The translations under genes and the position numbers were made by a program. DNA of 64,000 bases from a virus. Below the pieces are notes generated by a model. The model was not told where the DNA came from, searched no databases, and saw only the letters and a program-made list of their open reading frames with translations. The stretch lies in IMG/VR virus record IMGVR_UViG_3300045988_144119, positions 1-64,000 of that record. One strand, written 5' to 3'. This document shows, in pieces, positions 5,906-58,438 of the stretch. Numbering within the stretch: the first letter of the stretch is position 1; each line of letters opens with the position of its first letter.

Positions 5906-7132
5906 TTAAATGACCGTCTTTAATCGCCCGTTACCATCCGTAAACCCGTTAAGTGTTTCCGCCTCTTTTTCGGCTTCTTCTTTTGTTTGGAAGAATCCTA
6001 CCGGGCAATTATCCAAGGTATCTATAACGTACCAACCGCGTTTAGGATTGTTTTCCGTTATGTATCGTTTCCCTTTTACTTTCTTCTCGTAAAATTCTAC
6101 ACCCTCCGCAAACGGGGTGTAATGTGATGAGGTGCTAAGCGTACCCGATTCTATCTTGTCGTTAAACTCAATTATACCGGGTAAATCTTTTTTTAAGCTG
6201 CTTTCCACGCTTACACCGTCATAGGTTACGCAAAACTTACATTCTCCATCCGTATATACATTGAAAACATCGCCCGGCTGTATATCTGCACGTACTTTCG
6301 CGCCAGTTATGATTCCCGCGCCTTCAATATCATAATAGCGCACGCCGTTAAAGTTGCCCGTCTCAATTAAATGGATATTTTCAAACGGTCCCGTTTCCTC
6401 CGCAAGTTCCGGGATATATATTTCTTCAGGAAGCGCCGGCAACTCTGTAGGCGTTATCAACTCTTTCACCTTGTCCGCTTGTTTCTTGCTGAATATCCAG
6501 CCGGCACGCTTTTCTCCGTTATAATTTAAAGAGCAGTTAAAGCGTCCGCCCAGTTCCTTTAACTGCTCTTTGATTGCCTTCGTCTCGCCAAAAACGGCGA
6601 TAGCTTTCTCGGAGTAGTCCACGACTTCTATACCTTCAATCGTCACGGCTTCCACTTCTTTGGCTTCCTCAACCTTTTCAGGTTTAACGCTGCTTTTCTT
6701 TGCCTTCGGTTCTATAACCTTATATTCAGCACTTACTTTTATGTTTAAATAAAAATTAGTATCGAAATAGTCTTGCATGCCGTCCGAATCATCGTAACGG
6801 AAAGAACTAGCGTAATTTGATACAGCATTTAGCGATGCGAATACTTCCGGTGTTAACTCGTCTTTCCATGCCTTCACGTTGGACATCGTGGACATATAAC
6901 CACGTTCCGCGCTTCTTGATCCTTCGACGAAAGGAACACAAGGACCGGATTTTAATTCGATATACATCGAATCCGTGTACATGCTCCACTCAGAACGTAC
7001 AGAGAATTTAAACGCCGGGAAATTCTTCTTTGCATAAGATCTAACCTTTGCAGCGATTTCCTTTGTACTTAATTTGCTGTCATAATTTGAACCAGCCCAA
7101 CCATTTGCGGTATAAAAACTCATTGCTTTCAT
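5906..7132 (-). CDS. Hypothetical large protein (408 aa), first gene of the leftward arm
   Basis: Long ORF. The internal segment EKAIAVFGETKAIKEQLKELGGRFN...GWIFSKKQ resembles a module I recall from Bacteroidales conjugative-element/polyvalent proteins; this was not verified. Confidence 0.6.
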   Translation of the reverse strand: MKAMSFYTANGWAGSNYDSKLSTKEIAAKVRSYAKKNFPAFKFSVRSEWSMYTDSMYIELKSGPCVPFVEGSRSAERGYMSTMSNVKAWKDELTPEVFASLNAVSNYASSFRYDDSDGMQDYFDTNFYLNIKVSAEYKVIEPKAKKSSVKPEKVEEAKEVEAVTIEGIEVVDYSEKAIAVFGETKAIKEQLKELGGRFNCSLNYNGEKRAGWIFSKKQADKVKELITPTELPALPEEIYIPELAEETGPFENIHLIETGNFNGVRYYDIEGAGIITGAKVRADIQPGDVFNVYTDGECKFCVTYDGVSVESSLKKDLPGIIEFNDKIESGTLSTSSHYTPFAEGVEFYEKKVKGKRYITENNPKRGWYVIDTLDNCPVGFFQTKEEAEKEAETLNGFTDGNGRLKTVI

Positions 7133-27475: not shown

Positions 27476-27528
27476 GACATTGGTTTAAGTATATATTACC
27501 TTGTTATTAAGAGGTATTTTTGCTTTTG

Positions 27529-29151
27529 ATGAAAGAGCAAGAAGTACATAATGCGATAGTGAAGAAACCTTTCCCAGGTTTCCAAACCTACTTTGCTTCA
27601 ACGAACGTGGATATATCTTTCGGTGCCGGCGGGGTCGGAAACGGGAAGTCATACTCTCTTGTTCTTGGATTCGCTGAACCGTTAATGCTTGACCCTGATT
27701 TTAGATGCTTAATAAGTCGTAGAAGCCTTGGGAACCAAAAAGCAGGAGGAGGATTTGTTGATACATTCAAGGACATATTCGGGGGATATGTAAAAGTTAA
27801 AGAGGCAGACACGCCACGTATATCATTTCAAAGTGGAGCGTACTGCGATTTGACTTATATAGACCCAACGAATATAGACAGAATGAGGGAGCGTGCGAAA
27901 GGATGGCAGTACGATGCGATTGCCATTGATGAGCTTACCGAAATGCCTTGGGAGGTATTTACGTACATTCAATCCCGTAATCGTGGAAAAAGCAAAACAT
28001 TTACGGGGAAATTCCGTGCGACATTCAATCCTAAACGCACCCATTGGACGAGAAGATTCATAGATTGGTATGTTGGAGTTGACGGGAAGGGTATCCCTGA
28101 TAGAATAGGAAAAGTCAGATTCTTTTTTGTTGCTGGGTCTACCGTTGATGATGTGATTTGGGGAGATTCAAAAGAAGAAGTTTACGCTAAGTGCAAGATA
28201 CAGATAGACAGTTTGATTAAAGACTTGAAAGGAAAAGCAAAATATCAAGACTTTATCAAATCGTTTACCTTATACGAGGGCACAGTTGATGAAAATGAAG
28301 CTCTAATGGAAGGCAATGCAGGGTACGTTGGTTCAGTTGCCGCTTCTGGTACACGCTCTGCTGCTGGGCTTATCGGTGTAAACTATAATGCAGACCCAGA
28401 TTCTGACGAAAAGATACCTATCCCTTCCACTTCCGCACAAGGCGTGTTCAACAACAACCCTGCCGTAAACGGTGACAAATGGATTACCGTGGATTTGGCG
28501 GATTACGGTACGGATAATCTCGTGGCTCTGGCATGGGATGGATTTCACGCATACGACATTCTCATTCTTAGCAAGTCCACTCCGAGAGAAAACGCTATGG
28601 CAGTGAAGACATTTGCATTTGAGCATGGAACAGCCGAAAGCCATATCATTTTTGACGCGACTGCCGGAAGGTACTTCAATGATTACATTCCCGATGCAGT
28701 ACCTTATATCTCGCTAAATAAACCTTTCGGGCTTTACCAACTTACCGCAATGACAGTCAAGGATATGTGCTATATCAGATTATGCAAGATGATAGAGGAA
28801 GGCAACTTGACATTTGACGATAAACTTGCCGTTCAGACTTACACTCATCAAAACTTGAAATACAAAGTGACGGTTGAGAACGAGTTTATGGAAGAATGTT
28901 CCGTTGTGCGATTTGACGATATGCAGAGTGGGAAGAAGCGGCTTTGGAACAAGAAGAAAATGAATCAGATGTTAGGGAAAGGCAGGTCAATGGACTTGTT
29001 AGACCCATGCGCTATGAGAATGCTTCCGTGCGCTAACATTGAATACGGGAATGAGATTCAAGCAGGGTATTACAATCACGAGGAAGAAACCAAACAAGCG
29101 AGCCATGCACAGACAGAAGGAAGTATTTACGATGAACATTTATGGTATTAG
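27529..29151 (+). CDS. terL: Terminase large subunit
   Basis: Walker A FGAGGVGNGKSYS and Walker B YDAIAIDELTEM, with a C-terminal nuclease-sized domain. The track start at 27520 is TTG; the first ATG is 27529. Confidence 0.85.
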   Translation: MKEQEVHNAIVKKPFPGFQTYFASTNVDISFGAGGVGNGKSYSLVLGFAEPLMLDPDFRCLISRRSLGNQKAGGGFVDTFKDIFGGYVKVKEADTPRISFQSGAYCDLTYIDPTNIDRMRERAKGWQYDAIAIDELTEMPWEVFTYIQSRNRGKSKTFTGKFRATFNPKRTHWTRRFIDWYVGVDGKGIPDRIGKVRFFFVAGSTVDDVIWGDSKEEVYAKCKIQIDSLIKDLKGKAKYQDFIKSFTLYEGTVDENEALMEGNAGYVGSVAASGTRSAAGLIGVNYNADPDSDEKIPIPSTSAQGVFNNNPAVNGDKWITVDLADYGTDNLVALAWDGFHAYDILILSKSTPRENAMAVKTFAFEHGTAESHIIFDATAGRYFNDYIPDAVPYISLNKPFGLYQLTAMTVKDMCYIRLCKMIEEGNLTFDDKLAVQTYTHQNLKYKVTVENEFMEECSVVRFDDMQSGKKRLWNKKKMNQMLGKGRSMDLLDPCAMRMLPCANIEYGNEIQAGYYNHEEETKQASHAQTEGSIYDEHLWY

Positions 29152-29190: not shown

Positions 29191-30372
29191 ATGTATATGC
29201 AGCGAGTAGAACGACATATTATCATTGGTAACAAGTACTTGGACAGGCTTTGTTTCCTATCCAAGAATTTGTACAACTACGCAAACTATATGATTCGTCA
29301 GGAGTTTACGAAGAGTGGTAAGTTGCTTCCTGAATACGGATTGACAGCTTTACTTGCCAAGGAAAAACAAATGGATTATACATCTCTTCCTGCGAAGACC
29401 AGTCAACAGGTTGTTGCTCTTCTATTCAAGAATTGGAAGTCGTTTTTTAAACTATGTAAATGCAAGGACAAGCTTAATGGTAAACCGAAACCTCCGAAGT
29501 ATAAACATAAGACGAAAGGACGAAATATAGTCGTATTCACCTATCAGCAATGCAAGTTGAAGGACGGATACATTCACTTTCCGAAGAAAGTAAACATACA
29601 ACCGTTAAGAACAAAAGTAACTAATTTGCGTCAGGTTCGCATTATCCCGCAATGTAGTTGCCATATCATAGAAGTAGTATATGAAAAAGAAAGTATTGAA
29701 ACCACCGGACTTGAACCAAACTCTTATTTAAGTATTGACTTGGGATTGAACAACCTTGCAACTTCCTATGATTCGCTATGTCATAAGAGCTTTATCATAA
29801 ATGGCAGAATATTGAAATCCATAAACCAATACTTCAACAAGAGGAAAACTAAGTTAATGAGTTTCATTGGAGGGAAAGGTACAAGTAGGCGAATAGGGAA
29901 ACTAACACTAAAGCGGAATTGTAAAGTGAATGACTATATGCACAAGACTTCCCGATTTATTGTAAACTATTGTATTGATAATCATATTGATACTATTGTA
30001 ATAGGTAATAACAAAGATTGGAAGCAGCAAATAAATATGGGGAAACGTAACAATCAAAACTTTGTCAGCATCCCATTTGAAAAGCTAATCTCTCAGATAC
30101 AGTACAAGTCCGAAGAAGTGGGAATTAAGGTCGTAATAACCGAAGAAAGTTATACTTCCAAAATAGACCACTACGCAGGCGAAGAGATGTGTCAACATGA
30201 AACATATTTAGGTAAGCGCATACAAAGAGGTCTATTCCGTAGCAGTACAGGTAAAATCCTGAATGCTGATCTAAACGGAGCGATAGGGATTTTAAGAAAA
30301 GTAGTTGGCGAAAGCATCTCGCAAGTAGTCAATAGAGGGGGAGTGGAGACCCCAACGAGATTGCTGGTGTAA
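29191..30372 (+). CDS. tnpB: TnpB (IS605 OrfB-type RNA-guided endonuclease)
   Basis: RuvC triad contexts LSIDLGLNNLAT (D), VVITEESYTSK (E) and ILNADLNGAIGILRK (D). The usual CxxC...CxxC zinc finger between E and D is absent. Confidence 0.85.
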   Translation: MYMQRVERHIIIGNKYLDRLCFLSKNLYNYANYMIRQEFTKSGKLLPEYGLTALLAKEKQMDYTSLPAKTSQQVVALLFKNWKSFFKLCKCKDKLNGKPKPPKYKHKTKGRNIVVFTYQQCKLKDGYIHFPKKVNIQPLRTKVTNLRQVRIIPQCSCHIIEVVYEKESIETTGLEPNSYLSIDLGLNNLATSYDSLCHKSFIINGRILKSINQYFNKRKTKLMSFIGGKGTSRRIGKLTLKRNCKVNDYMHKTSRFIVNYCIDNHIDTIVIGNNKDWKQQINMGKRNNQNFVSIPFEKLISQIQYKSEEVGIKVVITEESYTSKIDHYAGEEMCQHETYLGKRIQRGLFRSSTGKILNADLNGAIGILRKVVGESISQVVNRGGVETPTRLLV

Positions 30373-30397: not shown

Positions 30398-30922
30398 ATG
30401 ATAAGCTATAACGACATAAAGGATATTATCAATTCCCTTAAAACAGAAGGAATTGAAGCAAGGGTAAGAGATGTTGCCTATTTGGTAATGTGTGATTCTT
30501 TCGTAGATAAGGATCTTGCTGCAAAGGTTGCTTACCAAGAAGATGAAAAGCCTTCAAACAAGGTGTTATCCACGCTTGCCGAGAAACTGAAATCTTTCGG
30601 CATCGGTGCTATCACTACCATATCTAAAGATGAGAACCGAGAAGCGTTGCTGAAAGAAATATCGGAGATGAAACAGATTGCTGACGATGCGAAAGCAAGT
30701 GGAGATTCAGACACTTTTATCAAAGCAAGTAAGGTCGTGTTGGATGCACGCGTGAAGCTGAACGATAAATTCAATATTGAAGAGAAAGAGGGGCAGAAGC
30801 GAATAATCGTTGTTCCGCAGAAGCACGACATTATCTGCAAATGGACTTCGAGAGAGTGTTCTGCAATGCCGAGCAAGGAAGCCTGCATGAAGTATTACAA
30901 CCTAATTGATGCGGAAAAATGA
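30398..30922 (+). CDS. Hypothetical protein (174 aa), possible small terminase by position only
   Basis: ORF between terL/TnpB and the portal gene. No TerS candidate exists upstream of terL. Confidence 0.5.
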   Translation: MISYNDIKDIINSLKTEGIEARVRDVAYLVMCDSFVDKDLAAKVAYQEDEKPSNKVLSTLAEKLKSFGIGAITTISKDENREALLKEISEMKQIADDAKASGDSDTFIKASKVVLDARVKLNDKFNIEEKEGQKRIIVVPQKHDIICKWTSRECSAMPSKEACMKYYNLIDAEK

Positions 30923-32439
30923 CACGGGAAGAGAAAAAAACATATCTATTGCGGAACGTAAATGCCTTGTTGCAGAAGAAACCGTTTTTCAGAGGAAGTG
31001 ACACTTGCTCTACAAACGACTATTCCGACGGTCAGTCCGCAGCTATTACCGATACACGCACGGCAAGGCTTCCGAATGTAAAAAAGAATATCGTTTCGCA
31101 GGAAAAGTTTCTGAAAGAACTTGACCCGATGAGCCATGAGGTATTATTTGATCAAAACTTGCCGAGCATTTGCGTGAAGTTAGAAGATGGGGGATATCAG
31201 GAAATCAAGTTCCAGCGCACGGCATTAGCTTTCCAAGAACAGATACTGGCGAGCCACGTAATCTACCTTTGCGGGAATCCCTGTACATTGTCTTTAAGAG
31301 GTGGCACTCCTTCCGAGAAAGATAAAGCCAACTATTCCACAATCAAAGAGTATTGGGTAGACAGGAATATGGATGGATGGCGTACAAAGGCAGTCCGTTC
31401 GCAACTTGCAACAGGCGATGCAGGACTTCTGTTTTATTATGACTATAAAGGACGTATCAAGTGCCGCCTGATAAGTTATGAAGATGGTTACGTAATCATA
31501 TCACACAATGACAACAACGGTGACAGGCTTCTTGAAAGTGTCTACTATGCCGATGCGGACGGTGTGGAATACATTGACAGTTACGATGATACCTACATGT
31601 ACCGTATGCACACACCGATAGACGGTGAAGAAGCAGGCGAGGACGGTTTTGTAAGAGAACTTCCTATATTGCACGGTTTCAGTGAGATACCATTGTGTAC
31701 CAAACGTGGTAATGTGGCGTGGAACAACGGACAGAGTCTTATCGAGATTTACGAGATTATCTACAACATCTTCTTTGTCATTCAGAAACGGAACGGCTGG
31801 GGCATTCTGTATATTAAAGGCAATCTGTCAGAAACGACAAAGAAACTTGCAGGGAGTATCATTTTGCAAGACAAGTCAATGGACGGTAACGGAAGTGCAG
31901 AGTTCAAAGCACCGCCCAGTCCGCAAGGTATGCTTGACAGTCTGCAAGATTTGTTCGAGAAGATACAGATAAACACCTCATGCACATTTCTTTTGCCTAA
32001 AGATGTCAAGTCAAGTGGTGACATAAGCGGACTGGCTATTACGCTGACCCGTGATTTAGATTTGAAGAATGCCCAGCAAGGGGTTATCGAGTGGCAGAAT
32101 TTTGCAGACAAGATGATGCGCCTGTTCAAGGAGGGATTAGCCAAAGAATTGGTAAAAAAAGGCGAGAACGTAAATGCCATTACAGAATTTGACAAACTTC
32201 GTGTCAGCTGTAAGTTCAAGATATGGCAGCCGTTCAGTGCAACTGAGTATAACAACATGCTTATCTCAATGAAACAGGCTGGTATTCTCTCCACGAAAAC
32301 GGCTATCGAAAAGAACACGGAGAGCACACCCGATGAGGAGCAACGAGTGACTAAGGAAGTTAAGGAAGCAGAAGAAAAGGTGATTGCCCAACAGCAAGCC
32401 AACAAAACGAACAAGCAGGAAGGAGGTAATAATGAATAA
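30919..32439 (+). CDS. Portal protein
   Basis: 506-aa ORF next to terL, with size and acidic C-terminus typical of SPP1-type portals. Confidence 0.65.
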   Translation: MTREEKKTYLLRNVNALLQKKPFFRGSDTCSTNDYSDGQSAAITDTRTARLPNVKKNIVSQEKFLKELDPMSHEVLFDQNLPSICVKLEDGGYQEIKFQRTALAFQEQILASHVIYLCGNPCTLSLRGGTPSEKDKANYSTIKEYWVDRNMDGWRTKAVRSQLATGDAGLLFYYDYKGRIKCRLISYEDGYVIISHNDNNGDRLLESVYYADADGVEYIDSYDDTYMYRMHTPIDGEEAGEDGFVRELPILHGFSEIPLCTKRGNVAWNNGQSLIEIYEIIYNIFFVIQKRNGWGILYIKGNLSETTKKLAGSIILQDKSMDGNGSAEFKAPPSPQGMLDSLQDLFEKIQINTSCTFLLPKDVKSSGDISGLAITLTRDLDLKNAQQGVIEWQNFADKMMRLFKEGLAKELVKKGENVNAITEFDKLRVSCKFKIWQPFSATEYNNMLISMKQAGILSTKTAIEKNTESTPDEEQRVTKEVKEAEEKVIAQQQANKTNKQEGGNNE

Positions 32440-54630: not shown

Positions 54631-55551
54631 TCATTTAATTTTTAAGAAGTTGCTCATTCGCTCAATGCATCTTTGTTTTTGATTGAGATTGGGATGCACA
54701 TATAAATTGAGTGTGGTAGCGATATTCGAATGTCCAAGAATTACACTCACTGTCTTATAATCGCATTGACTTTCAATGCATCTGGTAGCAAATGTATGCC
54801 GGAGTCCATGAAACACAATGTGCGGAATATTCAGACGCTTCAAGAGCCGGGCAAAGAAATCACGGTAAGAACGGGGATCTTCCGGACGTCCTGATGTTCC
54901 TACTACAAATCGGGACGGAGATATTTTCTTTACTTCCTTCAAGGCAAAGAGAAGCTGTCTTGAGATAGGTATCTCCCGGTATGAATTTCGTGTTTTGGGA
55001 GAAGTGAAAGTCCTTTCCGTAGTTCTTGATTCGCAGTTGTATATCCTTCCTGCTGTATAACTAATGGTGATTACCTTCTGTCTGAAATCCACATCTTCCC
55101 ATCGCAGGGCACACACCTCTCCAATCCTCATGCCGGTACACAGAGACAGCAGAATGCCTATATTCTTAGGAGTTGGGGATTCGGTGAGATGGCTCATCAG
55201 TATCTGTTGATGGTTTAAGGACAAAGTAGGCAAACGGTGAGATTCGGTATCTGTAGGATAGTTTATCTCCCACTCCTCATAAGGGAATAACTTATGTTTC
55301 CCACCATACTTGACTATAGATTTCAGCACCGCCACAATATCCCTTACGGTTTTTTTAGCAAGACCAGAGGAAAGCTTGTAGAGAACAAATTTCTGAACGT
55401 CGCTTTCCGATATAGCTGTCGCCGTCCCATAATATGGGAGTAAATGGGTTTGAAGGGTAAGCATATACGCGCACATCGTGGCATGCTTTATAATGGGCTG
55501 CTTCGCAGCACTCCAAATCCTGGCGACTTCTTGAAATGTTTTAGTATTCAT
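54631..55551 (-). CDS. Tyrosine recombinase (XerC/D-like phage integrase family)
   Basis: LCTGMRIGEVCALRWEDVDF, HGLRHTFATRCI, LGHSNIATTLNLYVH give the complete R-H-R-Y catalytic signature. 306 aa. Confidence 0.9.
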   Translation of the reverse strand: MNTKTFQEVARIWSAAKQPIIKHATMCAYMLTLQTHLLPYYGTATAISESDVQKFVLYKLSSGLAKKTVRDIVAVLKSIVKYGGKHKLFPYEEWEINYPTDTESHRLPTLSLNHQQILMSHLTESPTPKNIGILLSLCTGMRIGEVCALRWEDVDFRQKVITISYTAGRIYNCESRTTERTFTSPKTRNSYREIPISRQLLFALKEVKKISPSRFVVGTSGRPEDPRSYRDFFARLLKRLNIPHIVFHGLRHTFATRCIESQCDYKTVSVILGHSNIATTLNLYVHPNLNQKQRCIERMSNFLKIK

Positions 55552-56833: not shown

Positions 56834-57724
56834 CTAACTTCCCGTATAACTCATTAGATTTTTATTAACACTATTTTCATGGCATATTTCTCTAAACATT
56901 AATTGATATTTTGGTTTTATTAAATAATAAGCAAAAGTTTCAATTAAATCAACATCATCGTTTGTTCTACCTTGTATTTTGAAATGATTGATCCCTAAAT
57001 TTAAATAAGTATTAATCATATCAATTGTTACAACTTGTGGAGCATTTAATATTTCATAAAGATTACCATTACCGCAATAGCTTTCATGAATACATTTAAA
57101 CGTAATATCATTGTTATTTATATTTAAATTAGATATATGTTCATAATGATTTTTTCTTGATTTACAATTGTTAGGACAAATTGTATTAACAATTATTTCA
57201 AGTTTATTACGAGTATGTTCTGGAAATAATGATATAGTTTTCCAGTCATTTATCATATATTCACTTAATACTATACGTTTATATTGATCTGTCTTTTTTA
57301 TAATAGCTTCAAAATCAAAGCAAGCGGTAGTTGATAATATAAACTGTCCTCTTCTTATACCTTGATTTTCTAGCCATTTTTCAATATATAAATTAGAAAG
57401 ACAAAAATAAGTATTTTTCTTATCAAATGTTGTTATAATTCGTGATGCATAATCATCTGGAAAGTATTGTTCGTTAGCAAATAGATTACTCATAATGATA
57501 GTTGGACATAAATTATGTTCTTTACAAAAATTTTCAACTTCTTTTTCATTGTTGAAATGTCCACTATTTCGTCCGCCATTTGCTACTCCACCATTAGATC
57601 CATAAAAAGATGATATAATAAAGTTATCACGAAAAATATATGGATAATTTTCATATAATAAAATAGTTTGTTTTACTATATGAAATTTTTCAAATAGTCC
57701 TGGAAGATTAAAATAAACTTTCAT
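56834..57724 (-). CDS. Low-GC 296-aa protein, weakly U32-peptidase-family-like
   Basis: GINHFKIQGRTNDD resembles the U32 KIEGR segment, and a Cys pair is present in ICPNNCKSRK. It is markedly more AT-rich than the flanking genes. The assignment is tentative. Confidence 0.35.
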   Translation of the reverse strand: MKVYFNLPGLFEKFHIVKQTILLYENYPYIFRDNFIISSFYGSNGGVANGGRNSGHFNNEKEVENFCKEHNLCPTIIMSNLFANEQYFPDDYASRIITTFDKKNTYFCLSNLYIEKWLENQGIRRGQFILSTTACFDFEAIIKKTDQYKRIVLSEYMINDWKTISLFPEHTRNKLEIIVNTICPNNCKSRKNHYEHISNLNINNNDITFKCIHESYCGNGNLYEILNAPQVVTIDMINTYLNLGINHFKIQGRTNDDVDLIETFAYYLIKPKYQLMFREICHENSVNKNLMSYTGS

Positions 57725-57764: not shown

Positions 57765-57835
57765 TGGTAATAGGAGGGAGATTCGAACTCCCTTCTCTCT
57801 TAAGAGACTTCACTACCACGCAAAGTTTTCCTATT
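57765..57835 (-). ncRNA. tRNA-like element with an encoded CCA and only a 4-bp/4-nt mini-hairpin in place of the anticodon arm
   Basis: Acceptor AATAGGA/TCCTATT (7 bp), D-arm ACTT-TGCGTGGTAGTG-AAGT, stub CTCT-TAAG-AGAG, T-arm GGGAG-TTCGAAT-CTCCC, discriminator A, then CCA. Confidence 0.55.
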
Positions 57836-57839
57836 CCAG

Positions 57840-57977
57840 CTTTTTACGACATTAGCTTAGCCGTTGACTTATCGTATTACGCTGTAACACGAGTATAGTC
57901 TGTTACGAAAGATTTGTCATTTCTGACGTCTATTGACCTATTCATTTTCATCTTCGCTGTCAAAACCAGATAGCCCC
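57840..57977 (-). ncRNA. tmRNA-like 5' (coding-piece-like) segment
   Basis: Minus-strand GGGGCTATCTGGTTTTGACAGCGAAG... begins at 57977, matching a tmRNA 5' acceptor strand plus D-loop analogue. A short open frame ends DYTRVTA-TAA at 57877. The 3' limit is uncertain. Confidence 0.45.
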
Positions 57978-58061
57978 TTCGTTGTTTCTTTGTTATCGTA
58001 GTGAAACGCCACGGTCAGAAAGTTCTATGTCCTGATTTTACAAGATACTTTGCAAAGTAAT

Positions 58062-58120
58062 TTGTGGAGCTAGAGGGAGTCGAACCCTCGTCCAAACGAT
58101 TCATCTAATGACCTAACAGT
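58062..58120 (-). ncRNA. tmRNA-like 3' (acceptor-piece-like) segment
   Basis: Minus-strand ...TCATTAGATGAATCGTTTGGACGAGGGTTCGACTCCCTCTAGCTCCA(CAA) gives a T-arm (58073-58089), a 3' acceptor strand (58066-58072) and discriminator A (58065). Confidence 0.5.
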
Positions 58121-58420
58121 CAATATAGTAGTATATAGTTAAATCAATAACTATATACTTAAATATAATAAACTGTAGGTAAGTATAATAAAAATAATAA
58201 TCGGAAATATACTTATTAAATATAAAGGCAGATGCTTACTCTATATTTAAAGATTTACTTCTATATCTAATAATAGCGTCAATTATTACTTTACTATAGG
58301 CTCTAGGCTCGCTTACTCTACAGTTTTAAATAGGCTTTGATTGCATGTATAGTATAGCAAGTGCTCACGCAGAACGGACTCGATTGAACTATAGGCATAA
58401 AGCTCTCTATACATATACAA
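58121..58420. repeat. AT-rich array of TATAG(A)(A)GTAA-type short repeats in both orientations
   Basis: On the minus strand: CTGTAGAGTAAGC, CTATAGTAAAGTAA, ATATAGAAGTAAA, ATATAGAGTAAGC. On the plus strand: inverted AACTGTAGGTAAGTA (58171-58185). There is no ORF of 60 aa or more. Confidence 0.55.
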
Positions 58421-58438
58421 TTTGATTTTGTGTACATC

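Follow-up and report, generated by a model that had tools for sequence, protein, structure and literature searches.

The window, as the whole 64-kb stretch of DNA analyzed here is called, carries on its minus strand two segments in permuted order, in which an acceptor piece (58124–58065) precedes an 87-nt spacer and a coding piece (57977–57836). Re-reading of the sequence gives GGAC-GAGGG-TTCGACT-CCCTC-TAGCTCC-A from 58093 to 58065 and GGGGCTA-TCTGGTTTTGAC-AGCG from 57977 to 57955. GGGGCTA pairs with TAGCTCC across the two pieces in a 7-bp acceptor stem that includes G3:U70, AGCGA/TCGTT and AATGA/TCATT form P2 around the symmetric internal loop AGATGAA/AGATGAA, and GTCAAT/ATTGAC is a third P2 helix, which lengthens P2 up to 58124. 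An earlier sequence-only reading of the locus had described the two segments, the spacer (58064–57978), the acceptor stem and a P2-like helix around this loop, and all of these hold. The locus belongs to a family of which the analysis gathered 123 further copies on gut phage contigs, most of them crAss-like in size; together with the window they make 124 copies, in 56 distinct versions.

Organization of the Locus

The features of the locus, all on the minus strand, are as follows.

58290–58432 (−), upstream flank of about 145 nt, recognized by near-identity to crAss-like contigs
58065–58124 (−), acceptor piece, from the RF04321 alignment and stems that are canonical in the distinct copies
58124–58119, 58111–58107 and 58099–58093 (−), 3′ strands of P2 in the acceptor piece: P2c ATTGAC, P2b TCATT and P2a TCG/TTG, respectively
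58089–58073 (−), T-arm GAGGG-TTCGACT-CCCTC, with a T-loop of the TTCGA type
58072–58066 (−), 3′ acceptor strand TAGCTCC, followed by discriminator A at 58065
57978–58064 (−), spacer between the pieces, predicted to be excised
57836–57977 (−), coding piece, with a 3′ end that reads ..AAAAAGC-TGG
57977–57971 (−), 5′ acceptor strand GGGGCTA; the D-loop analogue TCTGGTTTTGAC and the P2 5′ strands also lie in the coding piece
within the coding piece (−), small hairpin GTCA-GAAA-TGAC before the tag frame
57877–57918 (−), tag reading frame, open in all copies and with excess synonymous change
57872–57892 (−), P5-like hairpin UCGUGUU-ACAGCGU-AAUACGA around the final codons of the tag and its stop, from covariation
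57839–57864 (−), post-tag block ACGGCTAAGCTAATGTCGTAAAAAGC, with the internal hairpin ACGGC/GUCGU
57765–57835 (−), downstream tRNA-like element, from covariation across versions and a minimum free energy (MFE) fold

The phage form has no room for the usual tmRNA pseudoknots, which bears out the earlier remark that the pseudoknot-rich body is absent. Only about 22 nt lie between P2c and the resume codon, no PK1-type pseudoknot was found between P2 and that codon, and the pre-tag region holds a 4-bp hairpin alone, with weak or partial comparative support. PK1 is not universal and is omitted by the RF04321 model itself (PMC11915505). The 3′ CCA is not encoded in the window, where CAA follows discriminator A. 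Encoded CCA is found in none of the parsed phage copies, and 41 of the 42 standard ssrA genes of Bacteroides type lack it too, which suggests that CCA is added post-transcriptionally; the CAA, contrasted with CCA in the sequence-only reading, is on these counts no anomaly. The spacer ranges from 18 to about 570 nt across the family and is variable in sequence. In the crAss-like phage cr114_1, a tRNA-His gene lies inside the spacer, and in some copies a group I intron sits within the T-loop. A scan for sigma-70 promoters and intrinsic terminators, which is ill-suited to Bacteroides and phage promoters, gave nothing above the shuffled expectation.

Detection by Covariance Models and ARAGORN

The Rfam model RF04321 (tmRNA_permuted) matches 58124–57877 on the minus strand over its full length (model positions 1–213) with 58.3 bits (E 9.5e-9; gathering score 47 bits), and this is the sole Rfam hit across the 64-kb window. 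RF00023 and the lineage models RF01849 (alpha), RF01850 (beta) and RF01851 (cyano), run permissively, do not reach threshold. The best lineage match (beta_tmRNA, 35.4 bits against a gathering score of 84) covers model positions 81–162 of 331, which is the tRNA-like domain only. ARAGORN reports neither a tmRNA nor a tRNA gene in the window.

The silence of ARAGORN follows the tag subtype. None of about 51 copies with a ‘DK...’ (‘DK/DN’) tag, the subtype of the window, is called, as against 48 calls among copies with G-start tags. Because every ‘DK...’ copy is missed, this silence is a blind spot of the detector and not counter-evidence. Changing GAC to GGC, VTA to IAA, or both, in silico did not restore detection. 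Annotation based on ARAGORN overlooks about 60% of the family, including the whole ‘DK’ subtype and the intron-split copies, so tmRNA is more frequent in gut viromes than such annotation shows.

Covariation Between the Two Pieces

Covariation was counted over the 56 distinct copies. The T-stem and acceptor-stem pairs are canonical in 56/56, with compensatory changes. Acceptor pairs 5–7 covary (the changes include CAT/ATG, CTA/TAG, TAT/ATA and CTG/CAG), G1–G4 are invariant, G3:U70 is present in all 56 and the discriminator is A. The inter-piece acceptor stem carries a predicted alanine identity set (G3:U70, A73). P2a and P2b also covary (AT to TA or the reverse in 15/40 copies; CG, TA and GC alternate), and P2c is invariant. 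The paired fraction is 0.915, compared with 0.33–0.42 when the partners are slid. In RNAcofold of the two window pieces, the acceptor piece uses its 5′ half to pair to the post-tag block instead of forming P2; this pairing was rejected, as it is lost in relatives wherever the sequence varies. The junctions are identical in L050, an independently assembled version of this phage. Pairing between the pieces is under selection, and the comparative evidence indicates that the locus is a selected two-piece tmRNA and not a chance resemblance, a decaying fragment or an attP core.

Tag Reading Frame

The start of the tag in the window (GAC, 57918–57916) was set by homology to the resume codon that ARAGORN uses in relatives. 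The codons GAC AAA TCT TTC GTA ACA GAC TAT ACT CGT GTT ACA GCG TAA specify (Ala)-DKSFVTDYTRVTA and a stop. The frame ends D-Y-T-R-V-T-A with TAA at 57879–57877, exactly as the sequence-only reading had it. This frame is open in 124/124 copies, with 13–15 codons and 24 peptide variants, and its length differences are whole codons. Synonymous changes make up 45% of pairwise codon differences, compared with 26% expected; D-Y-T and the final Ala persist despite synonymous substitutions in their codons. This Ala never varies; Thr is penultimate in five of the 124 copies, the window included, so that the window has V-T-A against the usual A-A. Most tags of the family end A-A or V-A, as ordinary degrons do. 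The family core is ...DYTR[I/L/V][A/V/T/S]A, compared with GETNYALAA in the native Bacteroides tag. The tag stop codons comprise 22 TGA, 19 TAA and no TAG.

The last codons and the stop also form the P5-like hairpin, in which ATT/TAA changes to ATC/TGA, CGT to CAT with ACG to ATG, and TGC occurs with GCA. The Ile codon thus varies at its third base together with the stop codon at its second. The paired fraction of this hairpin is 0.76, compared with 0.22–0.42 when the partners are slid. A post-tag helix TACGA/TCGTA, considered as a candidate, was replaced by this covarying hairpin. The codon comparisons show that the tag peptide is under selection.

Flanking Elements

The post-tag block is invariant among five copies found by BLAST; its invariance among the IMG/VR copies is by construction, because these were selected on that block. 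It is present in 3 of 185,579 species-representative genomes, all three of them MAG contigs.

The tRNA-like element of the window is 68 nt long, not counting an encoded CCA. Its acceptor stem, AATAGGA/TCCTATT, has 7 bp; the MFE fold also shows a D-like arm, a truncated ‘anticodon’ hairpin (4 bp, 4 nt) and the T-arm GGGAG-TTCGAAT-CTCCC, which falls short of the full cloverleaf, with its anticodon stem of 5 bp and loop of 7 nt. ARAGORN calls no tRNA here, and RF00005 has no match at E ≤ 10 in the window. Such an element is found in 82/124 copies, in 30 versions of 43–123 nt, of which 27 start exactly 3 nt past the block. At least 12 different acceptor-stem sequences occur, with pairing kept in all. 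Related 73-nt versions reach 28.5 bits against a gathering score of 29, and in some relatives the downstream element is called tRNA Ile-GAT or Leu-TAA by ARAGORN. The element is proposed to be a punctuation signal for RNase P/RNase Z that fixes the 3′ end of the coding piece.

The upstream flank has near-identical counterparts ahead of the tmRNA in three crAss-like contigs, and is found in 10 IMG/VR contigs. Tested as a structured RNA, it has a fold z-score of +0.29 and matches no Rfam family. Possible identities for this flank are a promoter, a leader or a portion of the transferred cassette.

The Phage Carrier

The window belongs to a siphovirus-type phage with an integrase gene (54631–55551, 2.2 kb from the tmRNA locus) and is unrelated to the crAss-like phages. 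The Bacteroidales phage context that had been assigned from the sequence is upheld by the best matches of the terminase and by a methyltransferase segment that is 89.7% identical to one in a Bacteroides phage. The neighboring ORFs, searched against Pfam and PHROGs, gave no match that points to RNA processing or proteolysis save a sub-threshold one to Peptidase_U32. A tblastn search of the window for an SmpB gene gave a best E of 0.45, in a weak test with an E. coli query sequence. The same cassette is common to the siphovirus-type phage of the window and to crAss-like phages; the two-piece tmRNA family is phage-only and appears to move between unrelated phages.

Proposed Function and Alternatives

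A functional tmRNA gene in circularly permuted (two-piece) form, carried by a gut Bacteroidales phage of siphovirus type that also encodes an integrase, is the reading with a probability of roughly 0.78. A permuted two-piece ssrA had been the proposal of the sequence-only reading, and it is supported by the RF04321 match, by ARAGORN-called crAss-like homologs, by covariation between the pieces and by the conserved tag. That reading had left three options, a minimal trans-translation RNA with an altered tag, a decoy, or captured and decaying ssrA fragments, of which the first fits best.

From this anatomy, we infer how the RNA would be processed and charged, how it would use host SmpB and how it would benefit the phage. 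A single minus-strand transcript would fold to bring the acceptor piece, upstream, together with the coding piece, downstream, in the tRNA-like domain, with the 87-nt spacer looped. Host RNase P would cleave 5′ of G1 of the coding piece, RNase Z-type or exonucleolytic trimming would act past discriminator A, and the host CCA-adding enzyme would supply CCA. The 3′ end of the coding piece would come from RNase P cleavage at the tRNA-like element, which lies 3 nt downstream. The two RNAs would be held together by the acceptor stem and the three-segment P2 helix, host AlaRS would charge the complex via G3:U70 and A73, and host SmpB would bind. The complex would then enter stalled ribosomes, add Ala-DKSFVTDYTRVTA and release the ribosome at TAA, and the phage would gain added capacity for ribosome rescue in infection, with a phage-specific C-terminal tag. 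The D-loop analogue (expected GGNUUNGAC; CTGGTTTTGAC in the window) and the T-arm region match those of the Bacteroides-type host tmRNA, and recognition by host SmpB and AlaRS is therefore plausible.

It is unlikely that the RNA is a working tmRNA with a chief role other than general rescue, in which the phage tag would redirect tagged proteins, for example in recycling host proteins, in evading or exploiting host proteases, or in stalling that results from anti-phage nucleases or stop-codon suppression. The family tag core is unlike the native GETNYALAA, its stop is never TAG, and the sharing of the cassette among unrelated phages suggests a portable benefit; similar ideas have been raised for marine phage tmRNA (PMC9004378). 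However, most tags still end as ordinary degrons do, the window reads well in the standard code and has no tRNA genes according to ARAGORN, hence no suppressor tRNA, and no evidence here separates a redirecting tag from plain extra rescue capacity.

Quite unlikely is a decoy role, in which the RNA would inhibit trans-translation in the host: its tRNA-like domain would sequester host SmpB, AlaRS or EF-Tu, or would enter stalled ribosomes unproductively, so that host rescue is shut down instead of being carried out. The element is minimal, with no space for the four canonical pseudoknots, and its tRNA-like domain mimics that of the host; a precedent is mycobacteriophage DS6A, whose tmRNA-like RNA is CDS-less and is reported to inhibit endogenous tmRNA in E. 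coli (PMC11915505). A decoy needs no tag, however, and the maintenance of the tag frame, with its conserved peptide, excess synonymous change and whole-codon indels, renders this reading improbable, as do the conservation of the stop inside the covarying P5-like helix and of the P2 link between the tRNA-like domain and the coding part.

Captured host ssrA fragments, in which the 3′ segment would be an attP core beside the integrase gene and the 5′ segment an unexpressed relic, are effectively refuted, although ssrA is often an integration site (PMC11915505) and 58065–58093 agrees with the closest host-type ssrA 3′ end at 27 of 29 positions, since the 3′ acceptor strand complements GGGGCTA of the phage itself and no host-type strand seen (GGGGCCG, GGGGCTG and others), the acceptor strands of the two pieces covary across the family, the exact 29-mer occurs in no host-type locus, the post-tag block is nearly absent from the species-representative genomes, and the module also occurs in crAss-like genomes, with no integrase in the flanks inspected (3 kb each).

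Two-piece tmRNAs are a textbook case of gene permutation, credited to three bacterial lineages and some organelles. If the two-piece tmRNA reading is true, the present family would add a permutation confined to phages whose host clade has one-piece ssrA. A natural minimal tmRNA without pseudoknots would probe what trans-translation really requires, and the tRNA-like punctuation would provide a handle on how the two pieces are cut out. The family also raises the question of why abundant human-gut phages invest in ribosome rescue, and its tag offers Bacteroides engineering a degradation signal that can be tested and may be orthogonal.

Comparison With Known tmRNAs and Other Systems

The closest relatives are found in crAss-like phages of the Suoliviridae, cr125_1 (NC_055900), cr114_1 (NC_055897), cr60_1 (NC_055891) and cr52_1 (NC_055888), which carry the same sequence family, with coding pieces 74–93% identical to that of the window. 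The window coding piece is 86–94% identical to crAss-like loci for which ARAGORN makes permuted tmRNA calls, with tags GNFYVTDYTRIAA and GNTSYVMDYTRLAA. The crAss-like copies and the window have in common the piece order, the P2 motifs, the DYTR tag core, the post-tag block and the downstream tRNA-like element. The window differs in its unrelated, integrase-encoding siphovirus-type carrier, in its ‘DK’ tag ending VTA, in a spacer of 87 nt as against about 160 nt, and in a tRNA-like element with a truncated anticodon arm and an encoded CCA. RefSeq annotates tmRNA in crAss-like relatives, and several crAss-like phages are given as ‘Permuted’ in Supplementary Table S1 of a 2022 paper (PMC9004378); the statement that such genes had not been described in Bacteroidales phages was therefore overstated. 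In the literature, annotation-level mentions only, and no paper analyzing these phage tmRNAs, were found, and the family is little-studied. New here are a Bacteroides-type tRNA-like domain in a permuted gene, although Bacteroides ssrA is one-piece, as well as the lack of pseudoknot room, the tRNA-like element 3 nt on, the siphovirus-type carrier and the ARAGORN-blind subtype.

Classical two-piece tmRNAs are described from Alphaproteobacteria, some Betaproteobacteria and some Cyanobacteria (Keiler 2000 and Sharkady & Williams 2004, via PMC11915505 and PMC9004378). They share with the phage family the permuted gene with the acceptor piece first, a tRNA-like domain formed in trans with G3:U70, a P2 helix that joins the pieces and a tag frame on the coding piece. 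In contrast, the phage tRNA-like domain has Bacteroides-type signatures and not those of the permuted consensus, the host clade has one-piece ssrA, and the phage form has no space for PK1, no encoded CCA and a tRNA-like element after the coding piece.

One-piece Bacteroides-type ssrA is about 397 nt long, with tags GENNYALAA or GETNYALAA. Its tRNA-like halves, CUGGUUUUGACAGCG and CGUUUGGACGAGGGUUCGA.UCCCUC.AGCUCCAC, are near-identical to those of the phage (85% and 84% identity), its GGC resume-codon context is similar and CCA is likewise not encoded. The G-type tags of the phages resemble its tags in their G-N/E start and LAA end. It differs in its standard order, its four pseudoknots (RF00023, 134.7 bits), its NYALAA-type tag and acceptor stems that end ..CCG or ..CTG, whereas in the permuted phage form the pseudoknot body is missing and a ...DYTR... 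core is inserted in the tag. To judge from these sequences, the tRNA-like part of the phage family looks derived from a one-piece Bacteroides tmRNA.

In tRNA punctuation and in 3′-end formation of the MALAT1 mascRNA type, a tRNA-like structure lies directly downstream of a functional RNA, and RNase P cleavage makes the 3′ end of the upstream RNA. The downstream element of the phage family is alike in that the acceptor stem and T-arm are kept and the other arms are degenerate, and by analogy it could recruit RNase P.

Marine phages (for example, Methylophilales phage Melnitz and pelagimyophages; PMC9004378) also encode two-piece tmRNAs, for which the use of host SmpB is presumed as well. Those copies match host lineages that are themselves two-piece (alpha type), and some have a glutamine riboswitch (PMC9004378), whereas for the present family no two-piece counterpart is known in cells. 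The odds are about even that the family is a fourth, phage-borne lineage of two-piece tmRNA. It would have originated when a one-piece ssrA from Bacteroidota was independently permuted, losing its pseudoknot body and acquiring tRNA-like 3′ punctuation and a phage-specific tag, and would now be spreading as a 0.3–0.6 kb cassette between unrelated gut phages, the crAss-like podoviruses and integrase-encoding siphoviruses.

Permuted tmRNA Locus and Its Relatives

The minus strand reads GGAC-GAGGG-TTCGACT-CCCTC-TAGCTCC-A from 58093 to 58065, followed by CAA, and, after an 87-nt spacer (58064-57978), GGGGCTA-TCTGGTTTTGAC-AGCG from 57977 to 57955, as the sequence-only reading had set out. The two 7-mers are complementary, including G3:U70, a symmetric AGATGAA loop lies between AGCGA/TCGTT and AATGA/TCATT in a P2-like helix, and a short frame ends in ...DYTRVTA with a TAA stop at 57879-57877. 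In a whole-window Rfam scan, the sole gathering-level match is RF04321 (tmRNA_permuted), which spans 58124-57877 (minus strand) over the full model (58.3 bits vs. gathering score 47, E 9.5e-9). Its alignment reveals a third P2 segment, ATTGAC/GTCAAT, and thus places the start of the element at 58124. ARAGORN calls no gene in the window, and none of the older lineage models reaches threshold there (beta_tmRNA, 35 bits vs. gathering score 84, tRNA-like domain only). The core interpretation, permuted tRNA-like domain halves of a two-piece-ssrA-like element in a Bacteroidales phage, is supported.

Megablast of the locus against GenBank phages retrieves crAss-like phages (Suoliviridae; 86-94% identity across the coding piece), some of whose records annotate "transfer-messenger RNA, SsrA" at the matching site, and ARAGORN finds permuted tmRNAs in crAss-like relatives, with tags GNFYVTDYTRIAA and GNTSYVMDYTRLAA. 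A five-way alignment gives a common layout of acceptor piece, variable spacer, coding piece with a DYTR tag core, invariant post-tag block, and second tRNA-like element. At least 119 IMG/VR contigs (50-148 kb) contain the post-tag block; among 185,579 species-representative bacterial genomes it turns up in only 3, all MAG contigs (MSHB01000026.1, MSGT01000071.1, and JAFZDT010000085.1; L124, L125, and L126 in our locus numbering) with the MAG labels Mollicutes, Sphaerochaeta, and Erysipelotrichaceae; the two of these contigs of ~100 kb are probably mis-binned crAss-like phage genomes. Only eight GenBank phage records, all uncultured human-gut genomes, carry the module, and in the crAss-like records cr6_1 and cr53_1 it is unannotated. 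The family set comprises 124 copies, or 96 distinct module versions. ARAGORN detects only 48 of the 124, every one with a Gly-start tag, and misses all copies with the "DK/DN" tag start, even RF04321-detected ones with canonical T-arms, so that Pharokka- and ARAGORN-based virome surveys undercount phage tmRNAs.

Selection on RNA Structure

Pairing was assessed on 56 aligned distinct acceptor-plus-coding concatenations. Each pair of the T-stem and acceptor stem is canonical in 56/56, with two to four pair types at each T-stem pair and covariation at acceptor pairs 5-7 (GGGGCAT/ATGCTCC, GGGGCTA/TAGCTCC, GGGGTAT/ATACTCC, GGGGCTG/CAGCTCC), while G3:U70 never changes. Of the P2 segments, P2a and P2b covary, and P2c is the same throughout. 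A paired fraction of 0.915 drops to 0.33-0.42 with partners slid by 1-2 columns. A strikingly covarying P5-like hairpin (57892-57886 with 57878-57872) closes around the stop and the tag codons just before it (paired fraction 0.76 vs. 0.22-0.42 slid); here Ile ATT plus stop TAA change to ATC plus TGA, CGT to CAT is matched by ACG to ATG, and TGC is matched by GCA.

Thermodynamic cofolding of the two mature pieces predicted for the window recovers the acceptor stem and T-arm, and also pairs the 5' half of the acceptor piece with the post-tag block. The latter pairing was rejected as an artefact of the window's single sequence, since it collapses where relatives vary (15/55, 15/56, and 25/56 paired), while the canonical P2 compensates.

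Non-canonical T-loops (GGGGC-TATCGTAT-GCCCC, GAGGG-TTTGATC-CCCTC, GAGTC-TTCGCC-GACTC) occur in some members (loci L006, L015, L027, L042, L048, L052, L086, and L118, and L012-type loci), in which the acceptor strand still pairs perfectly with its own 5' strand.

Tag Peptide and Predicted Function

The tag frame is open in 124/124 copies (13-15 codons, differing in length by whole codons) and encodes 24 different peptides. Synonymous codon changes leave D-Y-T and the terminal Ala intact, and 45% of pairwise tag-codon differences are synonymous, vs. 26% expected. The stops are TGA (22 distinct coding sequences) and TAA (19), never TAG, a pattern that might reflect TAG recoding in certain crAss-like phages or, more simply, constraint from the P5-like helix. 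Among the 124 copies, the window's tag, DKSFVTDYTRVTA, is shared only by contig L050, an independently assembled version of this phage (99% identity over 4.6 kb).

The element is predicted to act in trans-translation, appending a phage-specific tag and relying on the host's SmpB, AlaRS, and CCA-adding enzyme (probability about 0.78). That it instead serves as a decoy is improbable.

Downstream tRNA-Like Element

In the window, the second tRNA-like element is as follows.

57835-57768 plus CCA, minus strand: 68-nt tRNA-like element with acceptor, D-like, and T arms and only a 4-bp "anticodon" hairpin

Defined by a T-arm and an acceptor stem with at least 6/7 pairs, such an element is present in 82/124 copies, and in 27 of 30 distinct versions it starts exactly 3 nt past the post-tag block. 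The shortest of the 30 versions is a 43-nt minihelix and the longest measures 123 nt; together they use at least 12 different acceptor-stem sequences, all paired; ARAGORN takes only 18 elements as tRNAs. The fixed distance, and the retention of only those parts recognised by RNase P, RNase Z, and CCA-adding enzyme, point to a possible role for the element as a punctuation mark at the coding piece's 3' end.

Directly 3' of it lies a 296-aa ORF (56834-57724, minus strand) with a sub-threshold Peptidase_U32 match (18.3 bits vs. cut-off 22.4) and no PHROG match.

Phage Context and Apparent Cassette Transfer

The window phage is of siphovirus type, with the following features.

27520-29151: large terminase
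29191-30372, plus strand: transposase-like ORF, 393 aa (phrog_506, E 4e-51), between large terminase and portal
30919-32439: portal
1693 aa: tape-measure protein
54631-55551: tyrosine integrase
Both sides of the tmRNA locus: DNA methyltransferases
58290-58432, minus strand: conserved upstream flank, ~145 nt, near-identical in crAss-like L005, L025, and L067

Megablast of the window against GenBank phages finds no relative; the best terminase matches are to Bacteroides, Phocaeicola, and Parabacteroides phages of 60-74 kb (26-28% identity), and a methyltransferase segment shares 89.7% identity with Bacteroides phage BS-TP2. L050 aside, the similarity of 92/92 other matching contigs to the window is confined to 57821-58435, which indicates that the tmRNA and its upstream flank moved between otherwise unrelated phages. 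The flank, found in 10 IMG/VR contigs, is more conserved than the tmRNA itself; no Rfam model hits it, and its folding is no stronger than that of shuffled sequences (z = +0.29). Possible explanations are a promoter or leader function and a recent transfer of the cassette.

Introns and Neighbouring RNAs in crAss-Like Relatives

In six crAss-like loci (L106, L004, L005, L067, L018, L094), an insertion splits the acceptor-piece T-loop after "TT".

L106, site at 6174-6433, minus strand: insertion of ~297 nt, a group I intron (RF00028, 96.7 bits vs. gathering score 50)
L004 (cr6_1, NC_055894), ~426-1294: ~870-nt insertion with an annotated endonuclease ORF inside

The tmRNA gene of these relatives is therefore both permuted and intron-split, and the insertion probably explains the lack of a RefSeq tmRNA annotation in cr6_1.

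The crAss-like neighbourhoods are dense in structured RNAs (RAGATH-9, RAGATH-20, Hatchet ribozymes, RAGATH-7-assoc), none of which occurs in the window; RAGATH-7-assoc often lies directly 5' of the acceptor piece.

L001, 1089-1257; L002, 828-995; L003, 828-929; L004, 254-375; also L005, L012, L017, and L067: structured-RNA sites
L002 (cr114_1), 1352-1424: complete tRNA-His(GTG) gene inside the acceptor/coding spacer

Origin and Comparison With Known tmRNAs

A metagenome scan for CTGGTTTTGACAGCGG yielded 42 host-type standard tmRNAs of ~397 nt, with the tags GENNYALAA (28 copies) and GETNYALAA (3 copies), the latter being the native Bacteroides SsrA tag (bioRxiv 10.1101/2025.03.18.644028); one aligned to RF00023 at 134.7 bits. 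The window's halves share 85% identity with the Bacteroides-type genes over the 5' 24 nt and 84% over the 3' 36 nt, compared with 71% (5') and 78% (3') for the RF04321 consensus. In the RF00023 alignment, phage copy and Bacteroides-type tmRNA have in common Bacteroides-specific deviations from the general consensus (UUUUGAC for UUCGAC, ACAGCG, CGUUUGGACGAGGG). The CAA in place of CCA, remarked on earlier, is normal for the host group, as encoded CCA is absent from 41/42 host-type genes and all parsed phage copies. The window's 29-nt 3' segment was compared with host ssrA 3' ends as a possible attP core: it is found in 0/42 host-type genes (best 27/29), and its acceptor stem is absent from all 42. 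This mismatch, together with the covariation and the occurrence of the module in crAss-like genomes, leaves captured ssrA fragments or an attP core barely credible.

Two-piece tmRNAs encoded by phages are an already known kind of element, and members of this family can be seen in annotation: 53 two-piece tmRNAs, described as mostly marine, were reported in 18,146 phage genomes, with several crAss-like phages given as "Permuted" in Supplementary Table S1 (PMC9004378). The claim that such genes were undescribed in Bacteroidales phages is therefore overstated. The paper behind RF04321, in which RefSeq viruses were searched (79 phage sequences), gives 48 "permuted" entries from Bacteroidota genomes in Supplementary Table 2 and does not comment on them (PMC11915505). 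Our literature search found no paper analysing this phage family; as far as checked, there is no earlier description of its minimal architecture, its apparent Bacteroides-type origin, the proposed tRNA-like punctuation, its spread to phages that are not crAss-like, or ARAGORN's failure to detect many members. The combination of permutation and intron splitting is absent from the gene forms listed in PMC11915505, which recognises three main permuted clades. The family appears to be a phage-specific permutation lineage that has gone unrecognised and can be tested directly.
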